Position numbers and translations under genes: made by a program
The notes under the pieces: model-generated
Told to the model about the DNA's origin: nothing
Database searches by the model: none
The model's input: the letters and a program-made list of their open reading frames with translations, nothing else
Shown: positions 793 to 59,986 of the stretch, in pieces
How positions within the stretch are numbered: position 1 is the stretch's first letter
Layout: each line of letters begins with the position of its first letter
Origin: an uncultured candidatus Porisulfidus sp.
Lineage (GTDB): Bacteria > Pseudomonadota > Gammaproteobacteria > Poriferisulfidales > Poriferisulfidaceae
Reading direction: 5' to 3'
NCBI GenBank assembly: GCA_965116025.1
Contig: OZ220480.1
Coordinates: 896,001 to 960,000 of the forward strand
Length of the DNA stretch: 64,000 bases

Positions 793-940
793 ATCCGCCT
801 GCGTCCATTCTACGATAGTCCGCGCTTCAATATTATGGTGCGCAATGGCTCCAAGGGGAAACGTCGTCTCGATTTTTGAGGGGATGGGAGGGGAGATTCC
901 GGCGGACGCCGGTTTCGCCATCAAGGTTTCGGCGGCGATG

Positions 941-951
941 TTGTACAATTC
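941..951 (+). promoter_or_regulatory. putative -10 element (TTGTACAATTC) of autotransporter 1
   Basis: TACAAT at 944-949, about 50 nt before ATG 999; the same 11-mer lies upstream of autotransporter 2 (9997-10007). Confidence 0.5.
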
Positions 952-998
952 TCCGCCGCGTATTTAACTCATCGTCTTATCGTAATGAGGTGACTCAG

Positions 999-3900
999 AT
1001 GAAAGCTAGTCCTTCCGTTTCCAATGCCGCTCACGCCTCGTCGCGCGGGGCTTCGTCGTCCTCCCGCATAGGGGGGGGGGGGGGGGGGGGGGGCATAGCC
1101 TCCGTTTCCTGACCGTTCTGGCCGGTTTCACGGCCTTTCTCTCGATACCGCTAATTCCAAGCTCCGCCGTGGCGGGGACCACGGGGAATTGCGGCGACCC
1201 CAGCGCCAACGCGGTCACCTGTAGCGAAGCGAGCTACACCAACGACGACGGCTCCCCGATCAAGTACGAGAATCAGAACAAGGGTCTGACCTTGACCGTG
1301 AAGCCTACCGGGGTGGGCACGGTCACCATCACCGCCTCGAAGCTTCCTGCCAACGCGCGCGAGGAATTCCCGGGGATCCACCTGGACGGACACGGAACCC
1401 TGAAAGTCGTTCTGGATGGTTCCGTGAAAGTCGTGAACGGGGCGACCCGTACGACGGTGGAGGCCACGTTTGGGGATGGGAAGGAGACGTTCATCCACCC
1501 GGATCACAAGCGCGGCTCGCAAAACGACGGGGTGTACGTGGCGTACGACAAGGACTCCGACCGGGGGACGACGGAGGGCATGGTGGAGGTGATGGTGGGG
1601 AAGGACGCGATGATCGGGAGCGCGACGGCGCCGGCGGGACGGTTTGGGGTTCACGCGGCTTTTCTGGATGCGGACAACAACAGAAACTACCCGGCCGGGA
1701 AGATCAAGGTGACGAACGCGGGGGAGATATACGGCCATTACACGGGGATTTACGCGAAGCACGACGGGGCGGGCGCCATCGAGATCGAGACGTTGGAGGG
1801 GAGCGTGACGTCGATGGGTATCCGGGCGATCTCGAACGAGGCCAACAGGAACAAGCGAGGCGGAGACGTCACCATTCGCCACCATGGCCGGATCGTGTTC
1901 AAGGATCCGGTTCGGTATTTGGACTCCCTGAAAACGAACGCGCTGACGACGACCACGCCGTTGGAGGCGGACAAGGTGGACTATGCCGATAGGCACAGAG
2001 GCGGGATCTACGTGGAGCACAACGACAAGCGGAAGGGCACGGCCGCGAAACCCAGCAGCTCGATCTCGATCGAATCGAGCGGGGATATTGGGGCCCGCGA
2101 GTTTGGCGCCTACGTCATCACGTATGGGGCCTCCGGTTCCGTCGTGCCGATCACGGTCGACGTGACGGGGGGCGTCATCATGGCGGGCGGGCGGAATACG
2201 GAGAGTTTGGGAGACGGAATTTACGTTTATTCCTTTGGCCACAACGGCGGGCTCATCAAGGTGGATCTCGCGGGCGAGATCGCCTCGACGGGGACCGAGG
2301 GGGACGGGATCTACGTTTTACGGGCCACGTACGACGACAGCCAGCGTGGTGACATCAACCGGGACATCGAGGTGACGCTGAAATCCGGGGCGCGGATCGG
2401 CATGGAAGGAGACGAGCCGACCGTGGGTCGGCATGGCATGTATGTCATCCAGCAAATCCACGAGGGGACGATCCGGGTGGCCGTGGAGTCCGGGGCGCGG
2501 ATCGGGACCGCCGGGGCTCCAGTCGGCGGGCATGGCGTGTTCGCCGAGACCATAGCCTCGGACAACGAGATCCCCGTCATGATCACCAACGAGGGTCTGA
2601 TCCACGCGAAAGGCTCTGGGGTCTTCGCGTTGCATACCAGTTGGGGCGAGGTGGACGTGAAACATTTGGCGGGGAAGATCATTGCGGGCGACCTGTCCGA
2701 CGTCTTCTCCTCCTCCTCGCTCTCGGCGGATCACCAGACGAAACTGGCGGACCTGAAGGATCGGACCGCCGGCATTCTCGCCATCCATGGGGGCGCGGAG
2801 TCCCAGACGCTTCCCGGCAAGGAGTTTAATGAGGAGGACCCCGAGACCTACACCGCCGAGATCGGGGAGATCAAGATCATGTCGAAGGCGGACATCACGT
2901 CGAAGGGCGACGGGATTCTGGCCTACGTGAAAGACCTGGACAATACGGATGATGTAGATCCTCTGAAGATGATCATCCCGGTCAAGATAGACGTTTCGGG
3001 CGGGACGATCATGGCGGACGGGCATGGGGTCTACGCGGAGACGGCCACTCCCTATGACGATCCTGCGAAAGCCGGGAAGATAGAGGTCACGGTGGGGGAG
3101 ATGGCGACGATCCGAGCCAAAAAGGACGGGGTGCATGTCAAGGGCATGCGGACGTTCGCGTCCGACCACGCCCGGACGGGGCAATACGACCAGACGGTCA
3201 CGATCAACGGCAAGGTGATGGGCGGCGGTGGAGACCACGCCGGCGTTCGGATGGTGAAGGGCGGGACGCTGGTGATCGGGAGCGGCGGGCCGGAGGCGCG
3301 GCTCGGGGCGACCTCGGGCGTGGCGGTCCACGCGGACGGGGCTCTGACCATCACGATGAGCAAGACCGCCGACGGGCGCATCGGCTGGGTCGTGGGGAAG
3401 ATCCAGAATGGCGACAGCGCCGACACGACCTTCGCGGGCGTGGAAGTGGGGAAGACGTACCTGCTTCAGGATCGGGAGGAGACGAAGGGGATTTTCGACA
3501 CGACGATCGAGCGGAAGGTGACCTTGAGGGAACGCGCGGACGAGGACTATCACGAGTTCGAGCTGGTCTCTCAGGAGGAGATCGTTCGGGAGTACCATGA
3601 TCGGGCTCGGGTGTACGAGGCGCTGCCGTCGGTGCTGCTGGAGATGAGCGCGCCGGGCGGTCGTCAGGCGCGGTTGTCGGCGACGCGGGACGGCGGTGGC
3701 GCGTGGGCGCGGGCGCTGGCGAGCGACGGCGAGCGTGAGGCGGAGACGTCGACGACGGCGATGGACACGGCCGGGCATGATCTGTCCTGGGACTTCGAGC
3801 GCTGGGGCGTGGAGACGGGCTTCGCCGTTTCCACGGACCTGCCGGGCGTGACGCTGGGGGTGAGCGCGCACTACCGTGATGGCGAGGCGGACGTCGAGCG

Positions 3901-4498
3901 CGGCGGGAAGATCGAGGTCTCGGGCGTGGGCGTCGGGGTATCGGCGACTTGGTGGGGTGAGGATGGCTGGTACGCGGACGGGGAGTTCTTGTACACGCGT
4001 TTCGAGGACATTGACCTGAGCTCGGAGACTCGGGGGATGGTGGCGTCCGGTCTGGACGGAGAGGGTCACGCGATCGGCGTGGAGGTCGGCAGGCGGCTGG
4101 AGATGGACGGCTTCGCGCTGGTTCCGCGCGGAGGGTTGACGTGGACTTGGGTGGACGTCGACGGCTTCGCCGACGTGTCGGGCGTTTCTGGAAGCGGTCG
4201 GGTATCGTTCCGCTCGGAGGACAGCGTGCGGGCGCGGGTTGGAGCGCTGCTGGAGAATGGCCAGACGTACGCGTCTCTGGACGTGGAGCGTGAGTTCTCG
4301 GAGAGCCGGGAGGCGATGGCGTCGGGAGCGCGGTTGCGCTCGGAGGCGGAGTCGACTTGGGCGCGCTTAGGCGTTGGAGGCGTGATGACGCTGGACGCGC
4401 GGGGGGAGTCGACGCTCTCGGCGGACGCGCGCTACGCGGCGTCGGATGGCGACAATCATGACTATGGCGCGAGCGTCCTGCTGAAGGTTCGCTTCTGA
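999..4498 (+). CDS. autotransporter (type Va) paralog 1, frameshifted at G23 tract in signal peptide (putative phase-OFF)
   Basis: GAGGTG RBS then ATG 999 (MKASPSVSNAAHASSRGASSSSRI); G23 at 1071-1093; signal h-region HSLRFLTVLAGFTAFLSIPLIPSSAVA in the frame of ORF 1169-4498; beta-helix-like GIYV repeats; C-terminal beta-barrel ending YGASVLLKVRF. Confidence 0.88.
1071..1093 (+). repeat. poly-G homopolymer G23
   Basis: Counted directly; flanked by CATA...CATAG. Confidence 0.9.
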
Positions 4499-4510
4499 CC
4501 GACTTGTGAT

Positions 4511-4541
4511 CGCGGCCCCGGCGTTTCAAGCCGGGGCCGCG
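4511..4541 (+). terminator. GC-rich hairpin after autotransporter 1
   Basis: 12-bp stem CGCGGCCCCGGC / GCCGGGGCCGCG with 7-nt loop; homologous hairpins follow paralogs 2 and 3; no strong U-tract. Confidence 0.55.
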
Positions 4542-4946
4542 TCAACCGCGCGCTTCGAAAGCCTTGGCGAGGCGCCAAGCCGCGGGCTCGCATTGCTGCC
4601 CGCTACTTTCGTTCCGGTGTTGGGCCGCCGCTCTCCTCAAGTCAGCGGGAAGGCAGCAACTGGAAAGCTGCCGGAAGCCATCGTGGGTTTGTAGTCGTTG
4701 TTGAAGTATTCACTCGCGGTTATGCGAAGCGAAGGGAAAATCGCCTCGCGACGCGGAGCGTCCGGCCCCAGAGGAGAAATTTCCGGAATTTCTCCAGGCG
4801 CGTGCGCAATTTGTGAAACAGCATAGCCGGAAGTTAATTTTATGCATCGTGATTCAAATAGTTGCGAATACTTCAGCAGTGACCGCGATGGCGCCATGTT
4901 TTGGCAGGTCGGGCCTGGTGGCTCCCGATGGCTGGCTGGCGCGGCA

Positions 4947-6161
4947 TCAGCCAGCGACTCGAAATGCCGTTTCATATATCTTGATATCGGGCGCGCTCAT
5001 GCCGAGGCGGCGCGCCTCTACACGCCAGTTCGCGAGCGCGGCTTCCTGCCGCGCGATCATGTCGTTCGCCTGTTTGGGGTTCAGCCCGAAGCGAGGCGCG
5101 GCGGCTCGGGCGAGGTCAAGGCTCGCGTCCGGTCCTTCTTCCGAGATCCACGTGCTCAGCTCGCGCGCCTTCTCGAACGCTGGAACCGGGTTCAAGTCGT
5201 AGGCTGGGGCGAGGCGCCACCACTCGCCCTCGGCATGGAGAAAGCCATGATTGCGCAGGTGGTCGTCGAGGTTCGAGACCAGAACGTTGAAGATCGCGCG
5301 CCCGAAAATCTCGCGCAGGTCCGCGGTCGGCGCGACGGAGCGCTTGCGTATCACCTCGGCGATATCGGTGTAGGTCGCCGTCTCTCCGTCCTCGAGTCCG
5401 AGCATCGTCATCGCCGAGACGAACGGGATCCGATCATCGCCGCGGCGATCGAAACGGGACACGACGGCGACCGGTCGTCCGGCGGCCACCTCGATGCGCG
5501 CCGGCGCCGCGTTCAGTCCGGCCTGGAGAGCCAGCCGCATGGCCAGCACCTCGCCGTGAGGGACGGATCGCTCGTCGTCGGGTTTCGGGAATTTCGCGAT
5601 GGCGAGCGAGCCGTCCTCGTCGCGCACGGCTGACTTCGGACGCGCCCCCCCGAGAGGCGATCCTTCATGCAGCAGAAGACGCAGGTCATCCGCGGACTCG
5701 GCGTTCTGGTGGATGGCGTCCGCCGCGCGACGTAGCGCGGGCAGTTGAATGATCGGGGGAACCCGGTGGCGCTGTCGCCCTGGCCCGAAGCCATCGTCGC
5801 CGGGACGCTCGCAGCGCAGCGCGCCAATCCGTGTCGAGTCGTCAAGGCCGAGCAGGTAGTCGATCTCGGAAAGAGAGCGGCGCTCGCCCGTCTTGCGAAA
5901 CGCGCGTTGGATCAATCGCCGCCCCCAGCGATCTGGAGCCGTGTCACGAATCGCGCCCGGCAGGGCGGATCGCCGGGCGAAGGGCCCGGCCCGCAAAGGC
6001 AGATTCTCGGGGTCGATGGCGAACGCTTCAGGGTCGCGAAGCCAGTCTTCGTCGTATTCGAAAACGCTCGTCGAGCCGCGCGCCTTGGATATATGGCGAC
6101 ACAAGCCGACCCGGCGCGTCGTTCCCCCGACTTCCATATGGATTTCCACGGTCTGGGTCAC
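4947..6161 (-). CDS. hipA: HipA-family Ser/Thr kinase toxin
   Basis: N-terminal coupler (F.YD..W, PDRWGR), GSPLGGARPK P-loop, IAKFP, N.DDHLRNHGF and LAPAYD motifs. Confidence 0.9.
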   Translation of the reverse strand: MTQTVEIHMEVGGTTRRVGLCRHISKARGSTSVFEYDEDWLRDPEAFAIDPENLPLRAGPFARRSALPGAIRDTAPDRWGRRLIQRAFRKTGERRSLSEIDYLLGLDDSTRIGALRCERPGDDGFGPGRQRHRVPPIIQLPALRRAADAIHQNAESADDLRLLLHEGSPLGGARPKSAVRDEDGSLAIAKFPKPDDERSVPHGEVLAMRLALQAGLNAAPARIEVAAGRPVAVVSRFDRRGDDRIPFVSAMTMLGLEDGETATYTDIAEVIRKRSVAPTADLREIFGRAIFNVLVSNLDDHLRNHGFLHAEGEWWRLAPAYDLNPVPAFEKARELSTWISEEGPDASLDLARAAAPRFGLNPKQANDMIARQEAALANWRVEARRLGMSAPDIKIYETAFRVAG

Positions 6162-6490
6162 GGCGACCTCTCACGGCGCCGACGGTGGATCGCGCGCGGC
6201 AAAGCCTCCTCCTCAAGGTCGAGGCCCAGCGCGTCGTCCCGGCGGTCCGCGACGTCTCCCAGCCTGTCGACGAGTCCCAGGATGGCGAGCGCGGTCGCAT
6301 AGGTTCCGATGGAGACGGCCGGGTCGCCACGCTCCATCCTATAGAGCGTGTTGCGACTGATGAAGGCCCGTTCCGCCATGGAAATCGTGGAGAGTCGTCG
6401 CTTCTTGCGCGCGACCGCGATATCCGCGCCAAGCTTAGCGAGGGCCGCGCGCGCCGCGCGCGGGAGGGCATCTCTGGATTTTGATCGCAT
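6158..6490 (-). CDS. XRE/HipB-like HTH antitoxin
   Basis: LGADIAVARKKRRLS..MAERAFISRNTLYRMERGDP HTH; 4-nt overlap with the hipA start. Confidence 0.85.
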   Translation of the reverse strand: MRSKSRDALPRAARAALAKLGADIAVARKKRRLSTISMAERAFISRNTLYRMERGDPAVSIGTYATALAILGLVDRLGDVADRRDDALGLDLEEEALPRAIHRRRRERSP

Positions 6491-6499
6491 TTTGAATTA

Positions 6500-6533
6500 T
6501 GTATCATACAAAAAATAGAATAATGCTCATTAT
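6500..6533. promoter_or_regulatory. two AT-rich palindromes, putative antitoxin operators
   Basis: TGTAT-C-ATACA (6500-6510) and ATAATG-CT-CATTAT (6520-6533) directly upstream of the HTH gene. Confidence 0.5.
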
Positions 6534-6708
6534 ATAGCGCTTATCGTTGGATCCGAAGCCGTCTCCCGCGCCAAAGCGAGCCATGAGGTCTCGCTTTTTC
6601 CGGTCGGTTTCGGCATCGCGTCAAGCGGCTCGCGTCCGTCAGATTCCCGCTACGCCAAAATTGGCCAGAGCCTTGTCGCGATGTCTTCATTTGCTAAAAT
6701 CCAGCGCC

Positions 6709-7089
6709 ATGAAGCTGACGTTTCTCCGCGCCCGCCTGCATCGAGCCGAGGTGACTCGCGTCGAGCCGGACTACGACGGTTCGTGCGCGATCGATGGCGA
6801 GCTTCTTGAGACCGCCGGAATCGGCGAGTATGAGCGGATCGATCTCTACAACATCAGCAATGGGGAGCGTCTCACCACCTACGCCATCCAAGCCGACCGC
6901 GGCAGCCGCGTCATTTCGGTGAACGGCGCGGCGGCGCGCAAGGCGGCGCCGGGGGACCGGATCATCATCGCCGCCTACGCGCAACTGGAGCCGGAGGAGG
7001 TCGCTGGCTTCAAGCCGGTCCTGGTGTACTTGGGCGAGGGCAACCGCGTCGAGCGCGTCGCCCACAAGATTCCGGTTCAGGCCGCTTGA
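6709..7089 (+). CDS. panD: aspartate 1-decarboxylase
   Basis: LHRA.VT...YDGSCAID (Gly24-Ser25 self-cleavage site), NGERLTTY, NGAAAR; start placed at ATG 6709. Confidence 0.95.
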   Translation: MKLTFLRARLHRAEVTRVEPDYDGSCAIDGELLETAGIGEYERIDLYNISNGERLTTYAIQADRGSRVISVNGAAARKAAPGDRIIIAAYAQLEPEEVAGFKPVLVYLGEGNRVERVAHKIPVQAA

Positions 7090-7090
7090 T

Positions 7091-9886: not shown

Positions 9887-10046
9887 GAAAGATGTGGATG
9901 ACGGTGCGGGCGGCCATTATACAAGGCGCGCCCGGCAGTCGGGTTCCGTCGGCCCCTTTCCTGGCTCAACCGCACGCGAGCGCCGGGGCCGGGGTATTGT
10001 ACAATTCGCGGCTATCCGAGACTGATCCTCGAAGGAAGAATGAAAA

Positions 10047-13000
10047 ATGACTAAGAAGAATCAAAACCTGCTCGTTTCCGAGATTCGCGCCGCGCTCCAC
10101 GGCGCTTCGTCGTCTTCCCGCATAGGGGGGGGGGGGGGGGGGGGGGCATAGCCTCCGTTTCCTGACCGCTCTGGCCGGGCTGACGGCCGCTCTCTCGGTC
10201 GCGCTGACGCCGCATTCCGCTGAGGCGGACGAGTGCGGCGCGGTCAGCGCCGCCAAGACGGTCACCTGCGGCGCCGCGACCTACGGCGGGACTAATAACG
10301 CCGATGCCGATCCCGTCGACTACACGGGTCAGACGGGTGGCTTGACGCTGACCGTGAAGCCTTCCGGGGAGATGACGACCATCAAGTCGTTCTTGGGCAC
10401 TTCCTCAACTGATCGTCGCTCCGGGATCTATGTGACCGGCGCTAGCGCCTTGGTGGTGAAGCTGGAGGGCAAGGTGAGAATCGTGAACGAGGCCGGCGGC
10501 TGGACTTCACCCATCACGGGCACGTACACCACTCCTGGTGGCCAGCGGGTCAGCGCGACCTTCGTCGATCCTCAGTTCAAGGCGGGTCGCTGGAATCAAG
10601 GGGTTCACGTCTTGAACTCGCAAGGCCGCGACCGCACCGGCAACAGAGAGGACAAGATCGAGATCGTGGTCGGGGCCGAGACGAAAATCGGAACCGAGGA
10701 CGTTCCCGTGGGCCGGACCGGCGTGGTGGCGCATTACAGCAGCGCTTACGCCGTGGGCGACATCTCGGTCGTGAACCGAGGCGAGATCTACGGGTATTAT
10801 CGAGGAATCCATGTGGTTCACCAAGGGTTGTCCGGAGACGTCTCCGTCGAGACGGCGAAGGGCAGCGTGACCAGCAAGGGGATTCTGGTCTATCACTCCA
10901 ACCACTACGCCCTAGACAAAGGGGGCGACGTCACCATCACGAACCATGGGACGATCAAAAGCCTGAGGCAACGGCCTCTCTACGCGAACATGCTCACGGA
11001 CGGGGCGAACGGCAAGGTGGGCACGCTTTTGGATAGCGCCACCGCCTTCTCCGTGCACGGCATATACGTCGACCACAAGGACACGACCGCGCCGGGTTCC
11101 GGCGAGGATTCCAGCAGCGTGATCAAGATCACCTCGAGTGGTGACATCGCCGCTCGCCAGCATGGCATTACCATCGACACGTACGGAGACGCGGATTCGA
11201 TCGTTCCGGTGATGATCGACGTGACGGGGGGCGTCATCCAGGCCGGCGATGGGGATAACGGATACCAGGGACACGGGATCGAGGTTAGACACCGAAGACA
11301 CCTCGGTGGTTTGATCAAGGTGGATCTCGCGGGCGAGATCGCTCAGGCGGACGAGAGGCACGGGATTCACGTCTACCGGTACTCCGCCACCGACGCTCGC
11401 GACGGAGTCAATCGGGATGTCGAGGTGACATTGAAGTCCGGGGCGCGGATCGGCATGGACGGAGACGAGCCGACCGTGAGTTGGGATGGCGTGAACGTTG
11501 AGCAGCAAGCGGATGGAGGAACGGTCAGGGTGACCGTCTCCGAGGGAGCGATGATCGGGACTCGAGAGACTCCAGTTGGCGAGAACGGCGTGTTCGCTGA
11601 GAACGACAATCACGGTTCCGAGACCTACATCACGCTCGTCAACGAGGGCTTCATCCACGCGCGAAGCTCCGGGCTTGCCGCCTGGCATGTTGGGCAGGGC
11701 GACGTGGTGGTGGAGCATCTGAAGGGCGAGATCGTCGCGGGCGACGCGCCCAAGACGTTCAGCGCGAATTTCAGCGCGAGAACGGAGCTGGCGGCCCTGA
11801 AGCCTCGGACGGCTGGCCTCTTCGCTTTCCATGGAGGCGCCGAGCCCCAGGCGCTTCCCGGCAAGACGCTCAATGGCGGCGACCCCTCCACCTACACCAC
11901 CCGGATCGGGAAGATCAAGATCACGTCGAAAGCGGACATCACGTCGAAGGGCGACGGGATTCTCGCCTATGTGAGAGACTTGGACGATACGGCGTCGAGG
12001 ATTGCCAAGATGGTCATCCCGGTCATGATCGACGTGTCGGGCGGGACGACCACGGCGGACGGGCACGGGGTTTACGCGGAGACGGCCACCACCTATACGG
12101 ATACGGAAGCCCCCATGGCCGGGGAGACCATCGTCACGGTGGGGGAGATGGCGACGATCCGAGCCAAGAAGGACGGCGTTCACGTCAAGGGCATGCGGAC
12201 CTTCGCGTCCGACCACGCCCGGAAGGGGCAATACGACCAGACGGTCACCATCAATGGCAAGGTCATGGGCGGCGGTGGAGACCACGCCGGCGTTCGGATG
12301 GTGAACGGCGGGACGCTGGTGATCGGGCCGAAGGCGGAGATCGGCGCGACGTCGGGGATCGCGGTGAGCGCGGACAAGGCGCTGCATGTCACCCTGAAGG
12401 AGAACGCGCATGGGCAGATCGCGTTCATCACGGGGAAGTTCCTGAACAGTGGAGAGGACGCGCCGAACGTCTTCCAGCGCGAATCGATGGCGGGCATGAC
12501 GAAGGCGATAGCCGTGGGGGACGCGGTGAAGGCGACGTCCGGTAAGACGGGGACGCATGGGGTGTATGACGCGGTGTTCGAGCGGATGGTCACGCTGAAG
12601 TCGATCACGGGCGGGCACCAGTTCGAGGCGGGCGTGGAGAGGGAGATCAGCCGGACGTACCATGATCGGGCCCGGGTGTACGAGGCGCTGCCGTCGGTGC
12701 TGCTGGAGATGAGCGGCTCGGACGGTCGTCAGGCGCGCTTGTCGGCGACGCGTGGCGGCGGGGGCGCTTGGGCGCGGGCGCTGGCGAGCGACGGCGAGCG
12801 GGAGGCGGATATGTCCACGACGGCGATGGACACGGCCGGGCATGATTTGTCTTGGGACTTCGAGCGCTGGGGCGTGGAGACGGGCTTCGTCGTTCCCACG
12901 GACGCGCCGGGGCTTATGCTGGGGGTGAGCGCGCATTACCGTGATGGCGAGGCGGACGTCGAGCGCGGCGGGAAGATCGAGGTCTCGGGCGTGGGCGTCG

Positions 13001-13563
13001 GGGCCTCGGCGACTTGGCGGGGGGAGGATGGCTGGTACGCGGACGGGGAGTTCTCGTACACGCGGTTCGAGGACGTCGACTTGAGTTCGGAGACTCGGGG
13101 GATGGTGGCGTCCGGTCTGGACGGAGAGGGTCACGCGATCGGCGTGGAGGTCGGCAGGCGGATGGAGATGGACGGCTTCGCGCTGATCCCGCGCGGAGGA
13201 TTGACGTGGACTTGGGTGGACGTCGACGGCTTCGCCGACGTGTCGGGGATTACTGGAAGCGGTCGGGTGTCGTTTCGCTCGGAAGACAGCGTGCGGGCGC
13301 GGGTCGGAGCGCTGCTGGAGAATGGCCAGACGTACGCCTCGTTGGACGTGGAACGCGATCTCTCGGAGAGCCGGGAGGCGATGGCGTCGGGAGCACGGTT
13401 GCGCTCGGAGGCGGAGTCGACTTGGGCGCGATTGGGCGTCGGGGGCGTGATGACGCTGGACGCGCAGGGGGAGTCGACGCTCTCGGCGGACGCGCACTAC
13501 GCGGCGTCGGATGGCGACAATCACGATTACGGCGCGAGCGTCCTGCTGAAGGTTCGCTTCTGA
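10047..13563 (+). CDS. autotransporter paralog 2, frameshifted at G22 tract in signal peptide (putative phase-OFF)
   Basis: ATG 10047 (MTKKNQNLLVSEIRAALHGASSSSRI); G22 at 10125-10146; HSLRFLTALAGLTAALSVALTPHSAEA-DECG in the frame of ORF 10342-13563; same C-terminal barrel. Confidence 0.88.
10125..10146 (+). repeat. poly-G homopolymer G22
   Basis: Counted directly. Confidence 0.9.
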
Positions 13564-13572
13564 TTAGTCCAT

Positions 13573-13607
13573 GACGCGGCCTTGGCGTTTCCGGTCGGGG
13601 CCGCGTC
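13573..13607 (+). terminator. hairpin after autotransporter 2
   Basis: GACGCGGCCTTGGC...GTCGGGGCCGCGTC stem with G-U pairs; homologous to 4511-4541. Confidence 0.5.
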
Positions 13608-14117
13608 GACTGCGGGCGGTCCTCTGGTCGAGTCTCCCGCGAGCCTTTCCAAAAAACTGGTTGGCTCTCGCTAGGGAAACCGATGCTCGCCTCGCGCTGG
13701 CCGGCGACGAGATCTTTCGGAAGGTCACCGAGATGAAGTGGCAAGCGGCGCCATCGGGACTTCTCTATGACGCGCTATGCCCGGTTACGCCGTGACGGTC
13801 TCGTATTATTCTGATCTTCCGACGCGTCTCCTGATGCCGAGCGCTGCCTGAGCGGATCTCGTGGAAAAACGCCGAGGCTAGTCCTCGCCAGAATCGTTGA
13901 AAATCGCCCCAGCGCGGCGGCGTTTCGCTCGCGCCAGGGCTCTCTTCCAGAATGGCCGCGGAAGTCTCCGGCGATATGGAGTTGGCGAATCGTCCGTCGC
14001 GGGAGCGCGTCGTCGGACGTGAGCCTGCGCGCCACCTTCGCCCAAGTAAAATGGGCTGGATCCACCCATTCCCGGCATCGTCGCGTCGCCTCGGTCCGTA
14101 TGGGAACGGATTTCGCC

Positions 14118-15662
14118 ATGCCTGACCTCTACCCCGAATCCCTGTTTCTCCACGCGGAGCGTCTGCGGAGCGTCTCGATGCGGGACCTGTTCGGACGGGG
14201 TCGGGACCGCTCTTTTCTGCGCCGCGAGATTGAGGGCATCCACGTGGACGCCTCGCGCCAGAGCCTCGACTTGGAGGCTTGGTCGGATTTGCTGAAGATG
14301 GCGGGGAGGCTGGAGCCCGCTCGGTCCAGGCTGTTCTCTGGCGCGACGGTGAACGTGACCGAGAATCGCCCGGCGCTGCATCCGGCCTTGCGGGACCCGC
14401 GTCCAAAGGGACTGGTCGTGGGCGGCGTGGACATCCTCGCCGAGGCGCGGCAGGAGCGTCGGCGGCAGCGCGCGTTCGCGCGCGAGTGCGCGGGGCGCTG
14501 GGAGACGGTCGTCAACCTAGGCATCGGCGGCTCGGACCTTGGTCCGCGCATGCTGTGCGAGGCGTTTCCCCAGGCGCGGGGAGCGCCGGACATGCGTTTC
14601 GTGTCGACGATGGACCCGGAGGAGATGGCCGCCGCGCTGCGTGGCCTCGACGCGCGGCGGACGTTTTTCATCGTCGCCTCAAAGAGTTTCGCGACGGAGG
14701 AGACTTCCCGCAATTTCGAGGCGGCCCGGAGGTGGTTGGAAGGCCAAGGGGTGGAGTCCGGGGCGGTGATGGAGCGCTTCGCGGCGACCACAGCCACAGT
14801 TGATCGGGCGCGGGAGAGCGGGATCGACGAGCGGAGAATCTTTCCGTTTTGGGACGGGGTCGGTGGGCGCTACTCGGTCTGGTCGAGCGTCGGCCTGCCG
14901 GTGGCGCTGCATGCCGGATGGGAAGCGTTCGAGGAGCTGCTCGCGGGCGCTCGAGCGGTGGACGAGCATTTTCGGGAGGCGGACGCGGAATCCAACGTCC
15001 CCGTGATGCTGGCTCTGCTCATGCTGTGGAACCATACGTTCCTGGGCGCGCCAACCCGCGCGGTGCTTCCGTACAACTACCGCTTGCGGAGCTTGCCGAG
15101 GTTTCTGCAGCAGCTGCAGATGGAGAGTCTCGGCAAGCGCGCCGACGAGCGGGGCGAACTGCGGGATGTCGCGGCGCCGGTCGTGTGGGGCGGCTCCGCC
15201 AACGATGGCGCGCACGCGTTCTTCCAGTCGCTACACCAAGGGTCGCAGACGGTGCCGGTGGACGTGATCATCGCGCGCCCGAACCTAGAGGACGACCGAG
15301 AGCGGGCGCTGCTGGCGCAGTGCCTGTCACAACTGGATTTGCTGGCGTCGGGGCGGTCCGCCGAGGAGGCGGAGCCAGCCGCCGGAGTGGCGGCGGGTCA
15401 CTACGCGCATCCCGGTGACCGGCCGAGCGCGCTGTTCTTGATGGACGACCTGAGTCCGCGGCGGGTGGGGGCGCTGCTGGCCTTGTTCGAGCACGCCACC
15501 TTCGCTATCGCCACGCTCTGGGGGATCAACGCCTTCGACCAGTTCGGGGTCGAGCATGGCAAGCGCCTATCGCGCTCCTTGGAGGAAGCGTTGCGGGACC
15601 CGGAATCTCCGGCGCCCGGACGCACTCTGGATGTCCTTTTGGACCGGTTGCGAGGTCGTTGA
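14118..15662 (+). CDS. pgi: glucose-6-phosphate isomerase
   Basis: NVTENRPALH, NLGIGGSDLGP, SKSFATEET, VGGRYSVWS, QQLQMESLGK, INAFDQFGVEHGK; start uncertain. Confidence 0.95.
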   Translation: MPDLYPESLFLHAERLRSVSMRDLFGRGRDRSFLRREIEGIHVDASRQSLDLEAWSDLLKMAGRLEPARSRLFSGATVNVTENRPALHPALRDPRPKGLVVGGVDILAEARQERRRQRAFARECAGRWETVVNLGIGGSDLGPRMLCEAFPQARGAPDMRFVSTMDPEEMAAALRGLDARRTFFIVASKSFATEETSRNFEAARRWLEGQGVESGAVMERFAATTATVDRARESGIDERRIFPFWDGVGGRYSVWSSVGLPVALHAGWEAFEELLAGARAVDEHFREADAESNVPVMLALLMLWNHTFLGAPTRAVLPYNYRLRSLPRFLQQLQMESLGKRADERGELRDVAAPVVWGGSANDGAHAFFQSLHQGSQTVPVDVIIARPNLEDDRERALLAQCLSQLDLLASGRSAEEAEPAAGVAAGHYAHPGDRPSALFLMDDLSPRRVGALLALFEHATFAIATLWGINAFDQFGVEHGKRLSRSLEEALRDPESPAPGRTLDVLLDRLRGR

Positions 15663-16438
15663 TGCGCTACTTGCTGTTCAGCGATGTCGATGGCACGATG
15701 TTGGACGGAGACACGTATCGATGGGATGAGGCGTTGCCCGGGATCAAGAGAGCGCGCGCGCGCGGAACGCCGATCATTCTCAACACGAGCAAGACCGAGC
15801 AGGAAACCCGGGCGCTGGCGGAGAGTCTCGGGATCGACGCGCCGTTCGCGATCGAGAATGGCGGCGCGGTGTACGTGCCGCCGGGGACGTTCGACGACGG
15901 CGAGGAGGAGGGACTGATTCCCTTCGGCGCACCCTTCCGGGAGATTCGGGACGCGCTGGACGAGCTGTCGGATTCGTTTCGGTTTCAGGGGATTTCGGAA
16001 ATGAGCGGGAAGGAGGTCGAGGAGGCCTGCGGCTTGCCGCCGGGCGCGGTGGCGGCGGCGCGCGAGCGCCGCTTCAGCGAGCCGCTGATCTGGCGGGACG
16101 AGCTGGAGCGCCTGGACGAGTTCGCGGCGCGCTTGCGCCCGCGCGGGCTGATCCTCAAGCGCGGGGACCGCTTCATGCATGTCATGGGGGAGACGGACAA
16201 GCGCGTCGCGCTGGAGCGTCTGATGCCACGCTATCGCCGACTGCATCCAGGGGTCGCGAGCGTGGCGCTCGGCAATGGGCCGAATGATTTAGGCATGATG
16301 GCGGCGGCGGATATCGCGGTCGTGATCCGCAACCCGAACGGGCGCGACATACAATATCCTGGCGCGCTCGTCCCGGAAGGGACCGGTCCGGCGGCTTGGT
16401 CGCGCGCGGTTCGAACGTTGCTGGAGGGGCGACCATGA
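15662..16438 (+). CDS. HAD-IIB glucosyl/mannosyl-3-phosphoglycerate phosphatase (GpgP/MpgP)
   Basis: FSDVDGTML, NTSKT..E, ENGGAVY, FSEP, LGNGPNDLGM; adjacent to the synthase. Confidence 0.85.
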   Translation: MRYLLFSDVDGTMLDGDTYRWDEALPGIKRARARGTPIILNTSKTEQETRALAESLGIDAPFAIENGGAVYVPPGTFDDGEEEGLIPFGAPFREIRDALDELSDSFRFQGISEMSGKEVEEACGLPPGAVAAARERRFSEPLIWRDELERLDEFAARLRPRGLILKRGDRFMHVMGETDKRVALERLMPRYRRLHPGVASVALGNGPNDLGMMAAADIAVVIRNPNGRDIQYPGALVPEGTGPAAWSRAVRTLLEGRP

Positions 16439-17649
16439 GCGATTTCTTCCAGAATGGGCAGATCGTCACGCTGCATGATCTAGCGGGGCGCCCGACCGAG
16501 GAGTTCGAGGCGGAGTTGCTGGAGTTCTCCCGCGACCGGCCGCTGGGGCTGGTGTTGCCCTCCCTGTATTCGGAGCTGGAGGGGCCCGCGCTGGGCCGGA
16601 TCGTCGAGGAGCTGGCCCGGGTCGAATACCTGAACGAGATCGTGATCGGTCTGGATGCCGCGGACGCGGAGCAGTTCAAGAAGGCGAGAGACTTCTTCTC
16701 CCGCTTGCCGCAGCCGCATCACGTGCTCTGGAACGACGGTCCTCGATTGCGGGCGCTGGCGGACGAGCTGGAGGCTCGGAGCCTGGCGCCGACCCGGCAT
16801 GGCAAGGGTCGCAACGTCTGGTTCTGCTTCGGGTACGCGCTGGCCTGCGCCCGGGCGCAGGCCTTGGCGCTGCATGACTGCGACATTACCACGTACGACC
16901 GTCGCCTGCTGGCGCGGCTGATCTATCCGGTCGCGAACCCGAGTTTCAGCTTCGCGTTCTGCAAGGGGTACTACTCGCGCATCTCCGGGCGGGAGCTGAA
17001 GGGCCGGGTGGCGCGCTTGCTGGTGGCGCCGCTGCTGCGCGCCTTGCGCAAGGTGTTCGGGCCGCGCGACTTCGTCGAGTACATCGATAGCTTCCGATAT
17101 CCTCTGGCCGGAGAGTGCTCGCTGCGCACCTACGTTCTGAAGGACTTGTATCTGCCGGACGATTGGGGACTGGAGATCGGTTTGCTCGCTGAGGTCCGGC
17201 GCATGCATTCCAGCCGGCGCGTTTGCCAGATCGACATCGCGGACTTGTATGATCACAAGCACCAGCAGATGGGGACGGCCGCCGCGCGGAAAGGGCTGTC
17301 GAAGATGAGCGCGGACATCTGCAACGCCATCTTCCGAAAGATGGCGATCGAGGGCGAGGTGTTTTCCGAAGGAGTGTTCCGCAGCCTCAAGGCGGCGTAT
17401 CTGCGGGAGGCGCTGGATCTGATCGAGCGCTACCAGAGCGACGCGGTGACCAATGGGCTGAATTTGGACCGGCACGCGGAGGAGCAGGCGGCGGAATTGT
17501 TCGCCAGCAACCTGCTGGTCGCGGGACAGGATTTCCTGTCGCGGCCGATGGAGAGCCCGTACGTGCCGAGCTGGCGGCGGGTTCGCTCGGCGATCCCGGA
17601 CTTCTTGCGGCGCCTGAAGGTGGCCGTGGAGGAAGATAATCAGGAGTGA
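16435..17649 (+). CDS. glucosyl-3-phosphoglycerate synthase (GpgS-like glycosyltransferase)
   Basis: MSDFFQNGQIVTLH, LPSLYSELEGPAL, GKGRNVW, LHDCDI, FRYPLAGE, DWGLEIG, YDHKHQ. Confidence 0.85.
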   Translation: MSDFFQNGQIVTLHDLAGRPTEEFEAELLEFSRDRPLGLVLPSLYSELEGPALGRIVEELARVEYLNEIVIGLDAADAEQFKKARDFFSRLPQPHHVLWNDGPRLRALADELEARSLAPTRHGKGRNVWFCFGYALACARAQALALHDCDITTYDRRLLARLIYPVANPSFSFAFCKGYYSRISGRELKGRVARLLVAPLLRALRKVFGPRDFVEYIDSFRYPLAGECSLRTYVLKDLYLPDDWGLEIGLLAEVRRMHSSRRVCQIDIADLYDHKHQQMGTAAARKGLSKMSADICNAIFRKMAIEGEVFSEGVFRSLKAAYLREALDLIERYQSDAVTNGLNLDRHAEEQAAELFASNLLVAGQDFLSRPMESPYVPSWRRVRSAIPDFLRRLKVAVEEDNQE

Positions 17650-17874
17650 TCTGACCAGTGGCGGGAACGCCGCCCGTTACCGCCTGGCGCGAGAAGGAGT
17701 TTCTCCGCGCCTTGATGCCGTAACTCAGGTCGCCGTCGTCCCATATCGTTCTTGATTTCGACGACTTATCCGGGTATGTCGAGACTTCTCCGCAAGATTT
17801 GGGAACGCGCCGGTGTGAGCTTATAATGCACGCTCATCTGAACGTTGGACCTATCCCATATTAGGAGAACAACA

Positions 17875-20800
17875 ATGACCAAGAGCCCGTCCGTTTCCAA
17901 GATTCGCGCCGCGCTTCGCGGGGCTTCGTCGTCCTCCCACATAGGGGGGGGGGGGGGGGGGGGGGGGGGGATAGCCTCCGTTTCCTGACCGCTCTGGCCG
18001 GATTGACGGCCATTCTCGCGGTTCCAAACTCAGCCCTCGCGGTAGACGAGTGCGGCGCTACCAGCCCGGTCACCTGTAGCGACGCGAGTTACACGTCCAC
18101 CAGCGACTCCCCGATCAAGTATGAGAATGAGACCGGGGGTCTGACCTTGACCGTGAAGCCTTCCGGGGCGGGCACGGTCACCATCACTGCCACGAAGCTT
18201 CCCGCGACCACGAGCGAGGCGTTCCCGGGGATCCACCTGGACGGGGAAGGGACTCTGAAAGTCCTCTTGGATGGCGCCGTGAAAGTCTTGAACGGGGCGA
18301 CCCGGACGACGGTGGAGGCCACGTTTGGAGACGGGAAGGAGACGTTCATCCACCCGGATCACAAGCTGGGCTCGCGGAACGACGGGGTGTACGTGGCGTA
18401 CGACAAGGATGACGACGCGGGGACGACGGAGGGCATGGTGGAGGTGATGGTGGGGAAGGACGCCGTGATCGGGAGCGAGACGGCGCCGGCGGGTCGGCAC
18501 GGGGTTCACGCCGCCTTTCTGGACGCGGACGACGACACCAACTATCCGGCCGGGAAGATTAAGGTGACGAGCGCGGGAGAGATTCACGGTTATTACACGG
18601 GGATTTACGCGAAGCACGACGGGGCCGGGGACATCGAGATTGAGACGGCGGAGGGGAGCGTGACGTCGATGGGGATTCGGGCGATCTCGTTCAAGAACCT
18701 GGATAATCGGGTCGGGAGCGTCACCATTCGTCATCATGGCCGGATCGTGGTCAAGAGTCCGGTTCGGTACGCGGGCGCGCTGACGACGGCGAACGTGGCC
18801 ACGCCGTTGGACACGGACCTGGCGACGACCAGGAGCGACGTGAACAAAGGCGGGATCTTCGTCACGCATCGGGATAGGCGGAAAGGCGCGTCCGCGCCCG
18901 CGGAGCCCAGCAGCTCGATCCTGATCGAGTCGAGCGGCGACATCGACGTGGTCGCCAATCCGACCCACAGTGAAGACGTGAAAGGGATCTTCGTGGAGAC
19001 CTATGGGGTTGGCGGTTATTCCGTGGTTCCGGTGACGATCAACGTGACGGGAGGGACGATCACGGCGAGCGACCAAGGGAAAACCAAGAGTGGGATTGGG
19101 ATTTACATCCATTCGTTGCATCACTACGGCGGTCTCGTCAAGGTGGACCTCGCGGGCGAGATCGCCCGGACCGGAAGCAAGGGGCATGGGATACTCATTT
19201 ACCGGGGCACGTCGTTCGACAACGACAAAATCGATCCCGACGTCAATCGGAACGTCGAGGTGACGCTGAGGTCCGGGGCGCGGATCGGCATGGATGGGGA
19301 CGAGCCGACCGTGGGTCGGCATGGCGTGTACGTTCAAAACCAGATCTACGGGGGAAAGACCCTGGTGGAGGTCGAGTCTGGAGCGCGGATCGGGACCATG
19401 GGGACGCCGGTTGGCGGGAATGGCGTGACCGCCGAGGCCATAGCCAACGACAACGATATCAACGTCATGATCACCAACGAGGGTCTCATCCACGCGAAAG
19501 GCTCGGGGGTGGTCGCGTTTCATATGGGTTGGGGCGACGTGGACGTGAAGCATCTGGCGGGGAAGATCATCGCGGGCGACCTGCCCACCAACTTCGGCAC
19601 GGTCAGTCTGGATCACAAGACGAAACTGGCGGAGTTGGACTCCCGGAGCGCAGGCATCTTCGCCGTTCATGGGGGCTCGAAGCTCCAGACGCTTCCCGGC
19701 GAGACGTTCGAAGGCAACGACCCCTCCACCTACACCGCCGATATCGGAAAGATCGAGATCACGTCGAAAGCGGATATCGCGTCTAAGGGCGACGGCGTTC
19801 TCGCCTATGTCAAAGACATTGATGTTCCAGCCGATATCGTGTTCATCCCGATCATGATCGACGTTGCGGGCGGGACGATCACGGCGGACGGGCACGGGGT
19901 CTACGCGGAGACCGCCAGCCCCTACGAGGACGAGGACGCGCCGAAAGCCGGGAGGATCGAGGTCACGGTGGGGGAGATGGCGACGATCCGAGCCAAGAAG
20001 GATGGCGTTCACGTCAAGGGGATGCGGACCTTCGCGTCCGACCACGCCCGGAAGGGGCAATATGACCAGACGGTGACCATCAACGGCAAGGTGATGGGCG
20101 GCGGTGGAGACCACGCCGGCGTTCGGATGGTGAAGGGCGGGACGCTGGTGATCGGGAGCGGCGGGCCGGAGGCGCGGCTCGGGGCGGCCTCGGGCGTGGC
20201 GGTCCACGCGGACGGGGCTCTGACCATCACGATGAGCAAGACCGCCGACGGGCGCATCGGCTGGGTCGTGGGGAAGATCCAGAATGGCGACAGCGCCGAC
20301 ACGACCTTCGCGGGCGTGGAAGTGGGGAAGACGTACCTGCTTCAGGATCGGGAGGAGACGAAGGGGATTTTCGACACGACGATCGAGCGGAAGGTGACCT
20401 TGAGGGAATACGCGGACGAGGACTATCACGAGTTCGAGCTGGTCTCTCAGGAGGAGATCGTTCGGGAGTACCACGATCGGGCTCGGGTGTACGAGGCGCT
20501 GCCGTCGGTGCTGCTGGAGATGAGCGCGCCGGGCGGTCGTCAGGCGCGGTTGTCGGCGACGCGAGACGGAGGTGGCGCGTGGGCGCGAGTGCTAGCGAGC
20601 GATGGCGAGCGTGAGGCGGAGACGTCGACGACGGCGATGGACACGGCCGGGCATGATCTGTCTTGGGACTTCGAGCGCTGGGGCGTGGAGACGGGCATCG
20701 CCGTTCCCACGGACCTGCCGGGTCTGACGCTGGGGGTGAGCGCGCATTACCGTGATGGCGAGGCGGACGTCAAGCGTGGCGGGAAGATTGATGTCTCGGG

Positions 20801-21374
20801 GGTGGGCGTCGGGGCATCGGCGACCTGGCGGGGGGAGGACGGCTGGTACGCGGACGGGGAGCTCTCGTACACGCGTTTCGAGGATGTCGATTTGAGTTCG
20901 GAGGCGCGCGGGATGGTGGCGTCCGGTCTGGACGGCGAGGGTCACGCGATCGGCGTGGAGGTCGGCAGGCGCATGGAGATGGACGGCTTCGCGCTGGTTC
21001 CGCGCGGGGGACTGACGTGGACCTGGGTGGACATCGACGGCTTCGCCGACGTGTCGGGCGTTACAGGTAGCGGTCGGGTGTCGTTCCGCTCGGAGGACAG
21101 CGCGCGGGCGCGGGTTGGAATGTTGCTGGAGAATGGCCAGACGTACGCGTCATTGGACGTGGAGCGTGAGTTCTCGGAGAGCCGGGAGGTGATGGCGTCG
21201 GGAGCGCGCCTGCGCTCGGAGGCGGAGTCGACATGGGCGCGATTGGGCGTCGGGGGCGTGATGACGCTGGACGCGCGCGGGGAGTCCACGCTCTCGGGAG
21301 AGGCGCACTACGCGGCGTCGGACGGCGACAATCATGACTATGGCGCGAGCGTCCTGCTGAAGGTTCGCTTCTGA
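17875..21374 (+). CDS. autotransporter paralog 3, frameshifted at G27 tract in signal peptide (putative phase-OFF)
   Basis: TATAAT 17822-17827, AGGAG RBS, ATG 17875 (MTKSPSVSKIRAALRGASSSSHI); G27 at 17944-17970; DSLRFLTALAGLTAILAVPNSALA-VDECG in the frame of ORF 18003-21374. Confidence 0.88.
17944..17970 (+). repeat. poly-G homopolymer G27
   Basis: Counted directly; the C that follows the tract in paralogs 1 and 2 is absent or replaced by G here. Confidence 0.9.
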
Positions 21375-21626
21375 TCAGACTTGTGATCGTGGCCCCGGCG
21401 CTCAAGCCGGGGCTAGGTCTTGCTATCGGGATGGTCGCGCGGGCCCTCCCTCAAGTGATTCTCCGCGCTCAGCCAGCGGAGCCCTGCGCGAGGGCGTGTT
21501 TTGGTCTCGAAAACGCTCCCAAATCGCTCGCTTCCAGCCCGAAATCACGCCGAGCCCTCGCTTTTGAGCGAGCGAATTTTTGACGGGCGAAAATCGTCAG
21601 AATCGATCATCTCGGAGACCAAGGAA

Positions 21627-21671
21627 TTGACAACCGGCGTGACTTCCTGAATAATAGTGATTCTCATTACC
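21627..21671 (+). promoter_or_regulatory. sigma70 promoter overlapped by a Fur box
   Basis: TTGACA (21627-32), 17 nt, AATAAT (21650-55); AATAGTGATTCTCATTACC (21653-71) matches 14/19 of GATAATGATAATCATTATC; upstream of an iron ABC transporter. Confidence 0.8.
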
Positions 21672-21702
21672 AGTCGCGTTTTCCCTCATGCCGTGTTTCC
21701 TT

Positions 21703-59912: not shown

Positions 59913-59986
59913 GCGGGTGTAGTTCAATGGTAGAACATCAGCTTCCCAAGCTGATAACGAGGGTTCGATTCCCTTCACCCGCTCCA
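59913..59986 (+). tRNA. tRNA-Gly (CCC)
   Basis: GCGGGTGTAGTTCAATGGTAGAACATCAGCTTCCCAAGCTGATAACGAGGGTTCGATTCCCTTCACCCGCTCCA. Confidence 0.95.

Follow-up and report, generated by a model that had tools for sequence, protein, structure and literature searches.

Long G tracts set the reading frame of a 24-member autotransporter family in a sponge symbiont

What are runs of 22–27 consecutive guanines doing inside the 5′ ends of surface-protein genes, at lengths that leave these genes out of frame? The question is raised by a 64,000-nucleotide (nt) stretch of DNA (the window; positions 896,001–960,000 of contig OZ220480.1, GenBank assembly GCA_965116025.1) from an uncultured bacterium of the genus ‘Candidatus Porisulfidus’, a sulfur oxidizer of sponges. 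Three genes of the window, here called AT1, AT2 and AT3, each contain a poly-G tract in a position where the number of G's decides the frame in which an autotransporter is read. The host genome (G000; a single contig, C1, of 2,018,984 bp with 62.7% GC, in which the window is G000:C1:896001–960000) contains 24 such genes. Judging from their sequences, we consider it probable that a slipped-strand phase-variation (contingency) system best explains the tracts.

Three autotransporter genes with tracts in their leaders

The three tracts are the only long G runs of the window. A run of 12 G is matched 39 times, always within the tracts, against 0.03 matches expected from shuffled sequence, and the shared flank TCGTCYTCCCRCATA-G(n) occurs exactly three times against an expectation of zero. 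Each gene starts at an ATG that is in phase with the first G of its tract and is preceded by a purine-rich motif of Shine–Dalgarno type. The parts of the three genes are as follows.

AT1
944–949 (+): -10-like hexamer TACAAT, 50 nt 5′ of the ATG and conserved among paralogs
999–1070 (+): start codon and 24-codon N-terminal leader MKASPSVSNAAHASSRGASSSSRI, with the Shine–Dalgarno-like motif GAGG at 987–990
1071–1093 (+): poly-G tract of 23 nt, out of frame (+2); in frame at 21 or 24 nt
1094–1174 (+): putative Sec-type signal peptide in the downstream frame, HSLR / FLTVLAGFTAFLSIPLI / PSSAVA, delimited by eye; residues 3–16 are helical in the model
1175–4498 (+): β-helix passenger and β-barrel; PF03797 at about 3704–4402, end ...LLKVRF, stop codon TGA
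4510–4542 (+): GC-rich hairpin 3′ of the stop codon, with a counterpart after most paralogs

AT2
10000–10005 (+): -10-like hexamer TACAAT, from the alignment of paralogs
10047–10124 (+): start codon and 26-codon leader MTKKNQNLLVSEIRAALHGASSSSRI
10125–10146 (+): poly-G tract of 22 nt, out of frame (+1); in frame at 21 or 24 nt
10147–13563 (+): putative signal peptide (10147–10227), passenger and β-barrel; PF03797 at about 12769–13464
about 13573–13607: imperfect hairpin 3′ of AT2

AT3
17822–17827 (+): -10-like hexamer TATAAT, from the alignment of paralogs
17875–17943 (+): start codon and 23-codon leader MTKSPSVSKIRAALRGASSSSHI, with the Shine–Dalgarno-like motif AGGAG upstream
17944–17970 (+): poly-G tract of 27 nt, out of frame (+2); in frame at 25 or 28 nt
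17971–21374 (+): putative signal peptide (to about 18041), passenger and β-barrel; PF03797 at about 20580–21278
21390–21415: hairpin 3′ of AT3

As assembled, the frames of the three ATGs (999, 10047 and 17875) meet a stop after 37, 34 and 37 codons, just past the tract. The frames that follow the tracts are open for 1134, 1138 and 1133 codons, to positions 4498, 13563 and 21374. The in-frame lengths of AT3 differ from those of the other two genes because AT3 lacks the C that comes after the tract in other copies. The earliest start codons in the post-tract frames (GTG 1169, TTG 10342 and TTG 18003) lie within or past the signal peptide, so no alternative start would retain the export signal.

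An initial annotation, made from the letters of the window, had described the G23, G22 and G27 tracts with their start codons, given the same in-frame lengths with all three genes OFF as assembled, and predicted an autotransporter of around 1,100 amino acids in a different frame. Direct reading, the flank counts, our frame count and the long open frames with their barrel domains bear out each of these points. The clear ribosome-binding sites that it placed before the first and third genes correspond to GAGG and AGGAG, AT2 having a weaker GGAAG. It also foresaw that automated calls would be truncated and signal-less: the protein collection holds the AT1 product as 1109 amino acids, which is the length of the open reading frame (ORF) from GTG 1169, past the signal peptide.

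The C-terminal autotransporter barrel PF03797 was detected in all three window proteins (E 2e-23, 7e-24 and 4e-27, above the curated cut-off) and in an in-frame paralog, P0004 (E 7e-25). AT1, AT2 and AT3 all end in ...LLKVRF, with the aromatic barrel end residue expected of type Va, and their putative signal peptides, laid out by eye, consist of an n-region HSLR, a hydrophobic core of around 17 residues and AxA. The passenger gave no match to any Pfam family, either in the window proteins or in full-length P0004. The ESPR profile PF13018 was not detected in the N-terminal extension of P0004 (full in-frame protein, E ≤ 0.01; only PF03797 matched), and the extension is ESPR-like by position only.

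An AlphaFold2 model was built from an alignment of 23 paralogs and has a mean predicted local distance difference test score (pLDDT) of 64.6. Residues from about 35 to 770 are modelled as an all-β, right-handed β-helix with pLDDT mostly 80–95; the barrel is badly modelled (pLDDT < 50 from residue 775), probably because the alignment there contains only paralogs and is near-invariant. Foldseek found nothing in the PDB at E ≤ 1e-3, with pertactin (1dab) among the best rows, and the fold assignment is based on a VIA-align comparison with 48,161 chains. Pertactin 2iou_H matched with Z 22.5 and a root-mean-square deviation of 4.8 (425 residues aligned over model positions 42–772); other matches include Vag8 7akv_G (Z 18.5, 390 residues), Fap2 (Z 16.3) and UpaB (Z 14.2). 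The matches are right-handed β-helices throughout, polysaccharide lyases and tailspikes among them, with RbmB at Z 23.4; as lyases and tailspikes share the fold, a function is not implied by the fold match. On this model, AT1–AT3 are predicted to be classical type Va autotransporters with a pertactin-like β-helix passenger. They would share with Bordetella pertactin (P.69) and Vag8 the combination of a right-handed parallel β-helix passenger and a PF03797 barrel, although the sequence identity between the passengers is only around 12%. The family to which it belongs suggests that the passenger is probably an adhesin or another surface-interaction protein.

The family and the wider set of tracts

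Leader tracts of this autotransporter family make up 24 of the 45 long G/C runs of the genome, three of them in the window. They are 16–27 nt in length (mean 21.8, standard deviation 2.8), in 23 of the 24 copies the ATG-to-tract distance is divisible by three, and the downstream ORF is open in all 24 (889–1166 codons). Of the 24 copies, four are in frame, their tracts lying at 1062605, 1471950, 1498267 and 1586276 in the genome, and 20 are out of frame, 9 at +1 and 11 at +2; one in-frame copy reads MRATLHFSDTVRAALRGASSSSRV-GGGGGGG-HSLRFLTVLAGFTAVLSIPLIPHPAEA... The sole lesion of each copy is at the tract, and intact ORFs in every copy are unexpected of decaying pseudogenes. Among paralogs, tract length is decoupled from the flanking sequence: identical flanks of 30+30 nt enclose both G23 and G17, and flanks with one mismatch enclose G23 and G20. 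Nearly all 24 copies have a TA(T/C)AAT-like hexamer around 40–50 nt 5′ of the ATG, then a purine-rich Shine–Dalgarno-like motif, and most have a GC-rich hairpin 3′ of the stop codon. A scan of positions 700–1200 with the sigma-70 consensus found no full -35/-10 pair upstream of AT1, and the putative promoter consists of the conserved -10-like hexamer only. The initial annotation had proposed a family-wide contingency-locus system, and the common layout of 24 paralogs, their intact ORFs and the differing lengths between identical flanks agree with that proposal. Its count of three paralogs with up to 8 surface states was too low: with 24 members, the possible states are far above 8.

The passengers are diversified (mean pairwise identity 41–60%, by segment of the alignment) and the barrels are 85–94% identical. 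Third-position identity at conserved residues is 0.84 over the first 60 codons, 0.79–0.86 over the last 500 or so and 0.58–0.68 in the variable passenger. That synonymous third-position identity is higher at the gene ends than in the passenger suggests that the copies exchange sequence in these end regions. The family occupies around 4% of the genome. A partial copy with an open frame of 880 amino acids (G000:C1:508081–509958, − strand) lies outside the 45-tract set, and a 125-amino-acid C-terminal fragment lies at 885905–886279 (+), some 10 kb before the window begins. Cumulative GC skew is lowest at about 0.70 Mb and highest at about 1.70 Mb. If replication is laid out accordingly, it runs in the direction of transcription through 22 of the 24 autotransporter genes, which places the G run in the lagging-strand template.

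Genome-wide, the G/C homopolymers are bimodal in length: 45 are 15–39 nt long (27 G and 18 C), none is 9–14 nt and only 9 are 8 nt, whereas A runs reach 9 nt and T runs 10 nt at most. A congener, G015, has the same gap (12 runs of at least 9 nt, all of them at least 15 nt). The initial annotation had treated the tracts as an autotransporter switch; this reading is supported for the family, and the tracts also belong to a wider, genome- and lineage-wide set of 15–39 nt. Most of the 21 tracts outside the family are in or beside genes for surface proteins, secretion or DNA modification and defence. Six are sense-strand poly-C runs in leaders of genes for FN3-rich surface proteins, where they separate an extension that starts at an ATG from the signal peptide, and four of these six are in frame; one of the FN3 proteins also has PF03797. 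Other tracts interrupt or adjoin genes for type ISP restriction–modification, Eco57I-like, N6 methylase, N4/N6 methylase (in frame), DUF499, DndC-like (PAPS_reduct) and HATPase_c_3 proteins. The candidate phase-variable loci of restriction–modification or defence type, all outside the window, are at G000:C1 11481, 154914, 605518, 968262, 1038751, 1683699 and 666483. Further tracts are found at a type I secretion ABC/HlyD junction, in front of a gene for an RTX protein and 81 nt 5′ of a DUF255 gene. In known systems, it is genes of these classes that phase-vary.

One FN3-repeat protein is a giant, with an open frame of 9,644 amino acids at about G000:C1 108,600–137,600 (−) and a C29 leader tract that is out of frame as assembled. 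When all 45 tracts of G000 and 24 loci of G015, G017, G028 and G034 are oriented as G runs, their flanks tend towards A-G(n)-(C/T)-A. An A stands at −1 in 14 of the 21 non-family tracts and in 14 of the 24 loci from relatives; at +2, the corresponding counts are 11 of 21 and 19 of 24 (the genome is around 19% A; the loci include paralogs and are not independent). A CATAG repeat on both sides of the autotransporter tracts was considered as a target-site duplication and rejected, as the other 21 tracts have no such repeat.

Runs of at least 15 nt are present in 22 of 61 genomes: G000 itself, 11 of its 15 congeners and 10 of the 19 genomes of a sister family (f3). None was found in the genomes of family f2 (0/17; around 1 Mb each) or in 9 genomes of nine further families. 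With each tract counted a single time, four relatives had the following numbers.

G015: 12 tracts of at least 15 nt; 12 of at least 9 nt
G017: 14 tracts of at least 15 nt; 19 of at least 9 nt
G028: 8 tracts of at least 15 nt, one of them 70 nt; 17 of at least 9 nt
G034: 74 tracts of at least 15 nt; 90 of at least 9 nt

In G000 and G015, the Porisulfidus genomes examined, the gap between 9 and 14 nt is therefore strict; it is weaker in the sister family, in which G017, G028 and G034 have 5, 9 and 16 runs of these lengths. Among 24 loci from the four relatives, many have poly-C right after the ATG or a short leader and before the signal peptide, and in one the tract is at the start of a DNA methylase. 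The longest tract seen, a 70-nt poly-C directly 3′ of an ATG, is at locus L086 (G028:C1, about 1321697–1321767). Some draft genomes have G-rich junk at contig ends that may be a sequencing artefact (loci L069, L074 and L089 of G002), so draft counts are less reliable than those from complete genomes. Loss of mismatch repair was considered as the cause of long tracts and rejected, because MutS_V and MutL_C are present in tract-bearing genomes: both occur in G000 and in 19 of 19 f3 genomes, and they occur in 15 and 14, respectively, of the 15 congeners. Family f2 is nearly devoid of MutS_V (1/17) and MutL_C (0/17), and has no long runs.

Homologues of the passenger were sought in the protein collection with residues 30–780; 7,998 candidates were scored, giving 34 hits at E ≤ 1e-5, of which 24 come from the contig of this genome and 10 from three other assemblies (contigs of 3.01, 1.05 and 1.07 Mb). 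Four of these 10 have an in-frame Gly7, Gly8, Gly6 or Gly6 right before (N/H/Y)(K/S)(R/P/L)R(F/L)L.VALAGL..., and the other six are called from an internal Met at or after the signal-peptide position, as expected of out-of-frame copies. Exact-pattern scans of metagenome contigs (leader plus G12; G6 plus downstream flank) returned no stretches. A comparison of P0001 with the 15 congeners matched only barrel regions, at 32–34% identity, in five of them; the N-terminus of the FN3 family had no match in the same 15 genomes, and the family was not found in the 52 other genomes of the order, in which P0033, one of its homologues, had no match.

Proposed frame switching and its alternatives

We propose that the repeated unit, from the -10-like hexamer, Shine–Dalgarno-like motif and ATG through a 23–26-codon extension, the poly-G tract, the Sec signal peptide, the passenger and a 12-strand-type barrel to the hairpin, would act as a self-contained switch. 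The tract lies where the N-terminal extension gives way to the n-region of the signal peptide. At an in-phase length it would be read as 5–9 Gly within a leader that is cleaved off, and the protein would be exported and displayed; at other lengths, translation would end after 34–37 codons and yield no protein. Slipped-strand mispairing at replication would change the tract by ±1 nt or more at high frequency, making each copy hypermutable and its state reversible. With each of the 24 paralogs switching independently, a symbiont population would always include cells that display different subsets of a diversified surface repertoire. The G/C runs of 15–39 nt would likewise control the giant FN3 surface proteins and the restriction–modification and defence genes, and related sponge-symbiont genomes would share the device as a lineage-wide contingency system, or ‘phasome’.

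Several points qualify the case for phase variation by slippage. The contigs of two public runs (from one study) that contain this organism stop on reaching the tracts or earlier (10129 and 17916 are examples), and positions 1061–1102 and 17933–17978 were passed over as repeats in the comparison with them, which speaks neither for nor against heterogeneity in length. Long homopolymers are hard to call, so that the ON or OFF state of a single copy may be off by one. The in-frame share of 4/24 is below the random expectation of one-third, without reaching significance (binomial P = 0.059). MutS and MutL look intact in G000, so a lack of mismatch repair, which boosts slippage in Campylobacter, does not do so here. 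The genes are species-specific, which leaves no orthologous tract to compare between species. Finally, slippage of RNA polymerase or the ribosome on 22–27 G's could blur the switch and make OFF copies leaky.

Taken further, this last point becomes an alternative in its own right: RNA polymerase slippage, or ribosomal slippage on GGG, would partly restore the frame, all 24 copies would be expressed at a low level and the DNA length would only modulate the amount. The RNA polymerase of Escherichia coli slips efficiently on A/T runs and poorly on G/C runs, which counts against such a scheme. The tracts are far longer than the RNA–DNA hybrid, and every register of a G run should pair equally well; there is also a precedent in Buchnera, in which polymerase infidelity at poly(A) homopolymers is reported to rescue the frame (PMC2831843). 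The mixture of in-frame and out-of-frame copies is, however, what switching at the DNA level would produce, and we regard partial rescue of this kind as unlikely.

An extension of the frame switch, which we think quite unlikely, is that an active process keeps the runs from falling below 15 nt and that they serve both as switches and as quadruplex or stalling sites, the latter promoting the exchange of passenger segments between the 24 paralogs. Fifteen nucleotides is the minimum length at which a G run might fold into a three-tetrad quadruplex. If so, phase and antigenic variation would be combined in a mutualist of an animal without adaptive immunity.

The tracts might also be real but their lengths miscalled, with all copies fixed in frame and expressed constitutively, the tract encoding a poly-Gly linker in the leader. 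Long homopolymers are prone to error, the contig ends of the public runs coincide with the tracts, and the G-rich contig-end junk of some draft relatives resembles an artefact of sequencing chemistry. A 20-nt G run is intrinsically unstable in replication through slipped-strand mispairing. In addition, the spread of 16–27 nt among paralogs with near-identical flanks far exceeds a calling error of ±1, independent complete assemblies have similar tracts, and other assemblies contain both in-frame and apparently truncated copies. A pure artefact of length is therefore distinctly improbable.

Two further explanations fare worst. In the first, which would resemble the silent-archive models of Anaplasma msp2 and Treponema tprK, most paralogs would be silent and would supply sequence, by gene conversion, to a small number of expressed loci, and the frameshifts would be incidental. 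The raised third-position identity at the gene ends suggests the necessary exchange between copies, but every copy has its own -10-like hexamer, Shine–Dalgarno-like motif and ATG leader, most have a terminal hairpin, no single expression site is distinguished and the tract is the sole lesion of each copy, all of which makes an archive very unlikely. It is similarly very improbable that the runs are mainly quadruplex or polymerase-stalling elements for paralog recombination or transcription control, as in pilE-G4, with frame control secondary: the shortest tract is 15 nt with no run of 9–14 nt in G000 or G015, all 24 autotransporter copies have the G run on the non-template strand and the gene ends are homogenized, but the FN3 family has poly-C in the sense strand, sister-family genomes do contain runs of 9–14 nt, and a position exactly between start codon and signal peptide points to frame control.

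Known systems, meaning and insertion history

The closest parallel in position is provided by pilC1 and pilC2 of Neisseria gonorrhoeae and Neisseria meningitidis, which have poly-G in the region that codes for the signal peptide. There, as proposed here, a G run within the signal-peptide region of a surface adhesin sets the frame, and the encoded Gly residues leave with the leader. The pilC system differs in having two genes rather than 24, tracts of around 11–13 G and a product that is not an autotransporter, and in belonging to a human pathogen. In family structure, the neisserial opa genes are closer, with 11–12 paralogs that have CTCTT repeats in the coding region of the leader peptide. 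Like the system proposed here, they form a dispersed family of outer-membrane adhesins, each a complete unit with its own repeat switch in the signal-peptide region, with few copies ON at once and with variable exposed parts. Unlike the genes described here, they have a pentanucleotide repeat and encode small 8-strand barrels rather than autotransporters of 1,100 amino acids, in a family around half as large.

Within type Va, tracts of around 8–14 nt are found in NalP, MspA and capA. N. meningitidis NalP and MspA/AusI (poly-C) and Campylobacter jejuni capA (poly-G) are phase-variable members of this class (PMC5953494, PMC7168839). They resemble the proposed system in being type Va proteins switched by an intragenic G/C homopolymer; they are, however, single genes, and their tracts are not generally found at the junction of an N-terminal extension with the signal peptide. 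The badE gene of Bartonella encodes a trimeric autotransporter adhesin with mononucleotide simple-sequence repeats, for which length changes were seen experimentally (PMC11466379). The likeness to the proposed system lies in homopolymers early in the frame of an autotransporter adhesin, acting as contingency loci in a host-associated bacterium, and the differences in the trimeric (Vc rather than Va) architecture, repeats of around 9–12 nt and a vertebrate host; the survey in that paper counted runs of 9 or more. In a survey of 99 prokaryotic genomes, poly(G) and poly(C) were generally under-represented, and only runs of 7–8 nt were enriched, in a few of the genomes (PMC2831843).

Literature searches, which returned mostly listings and abstracts, found no paper on homopolymer switches in sponge symbionts. 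What is new here is the tract length (15–39 nt, and 70 nt in a relative), the size of the switched autotransporter family (24 members) and the setting, a lineage of sponge mutualists proficient in mismatch repair. Compared with any classical phasome, the tracts appear to be longer by a factor of two to three. In textbooks, contingency loci mark pathogens that escape the adaptive immunity of vertebrates; the complete set of hallmarks is present here in a reduced-genome, sulfur-oxidizing sponge mutualist, with dozens of tracts at the 5′ ends of surface-protein and restriction–modification genes. If the switching is real, stochastic surface variation would matter for the persistence of the symbiont, for example through the avoidance of host phagocytosis, the choice of attachment partners or escape from phages, and how such long runs stay usefully stable in a mismatch-repair-proficient cell becomes a mechanistic question. 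Automated annotation miscalls these genes as signal-less proteins and short-read assemblies break at the tracts, which makes the system hard to see in most surveys of metagenome-assembled genomes.

The neighbours of the three genes in the window are housekeeping genes (panC, panD, ppc, pgi, gpgP, gpgS and an ABC transporter). In 10 related species whose ppc is 82–84% identical, the order gpgS-gpgP-pgi, ppc, panD is contiguous in all 10, and the ppc neighbourhood of all 10 has no autotransporter, no G/C run of at least 9 nt and no A/T run of at least 10 nt. The spacer between pgi and ppc is around 60 nt in 7 of the 10 relatives against 4.1 kb here. The spacers that hold the autotransporter units, short in the related species, are the following (window positions).

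793–6546: spacer with AT1
9887–14018: spacer with AT2
17650–21687: spacer with AT3

Because the ppc loci of relatives are contiguous and have neither autotransporter nor tract, the window copies are lineage-specific insertions of units of around 3.6–4 kb into intergenic spacers. No transposase or terminal repeats were noticed around the three units. An ORF resembling HipA-family kinases (4947–6161, − strand; weak NCBIfam match, E 5e-12) adjoins AT1, and was not seen at that position in the sole relative whose locus reached panC. Further along the window, at 59913–59986 (+), is a gene for a transfer RNA, tRNA-Gly(CCC), that decodes the GGG codons of in-frame tracts; by a crude count over ORFs, GGG accounts for around 22% of Gly codons.

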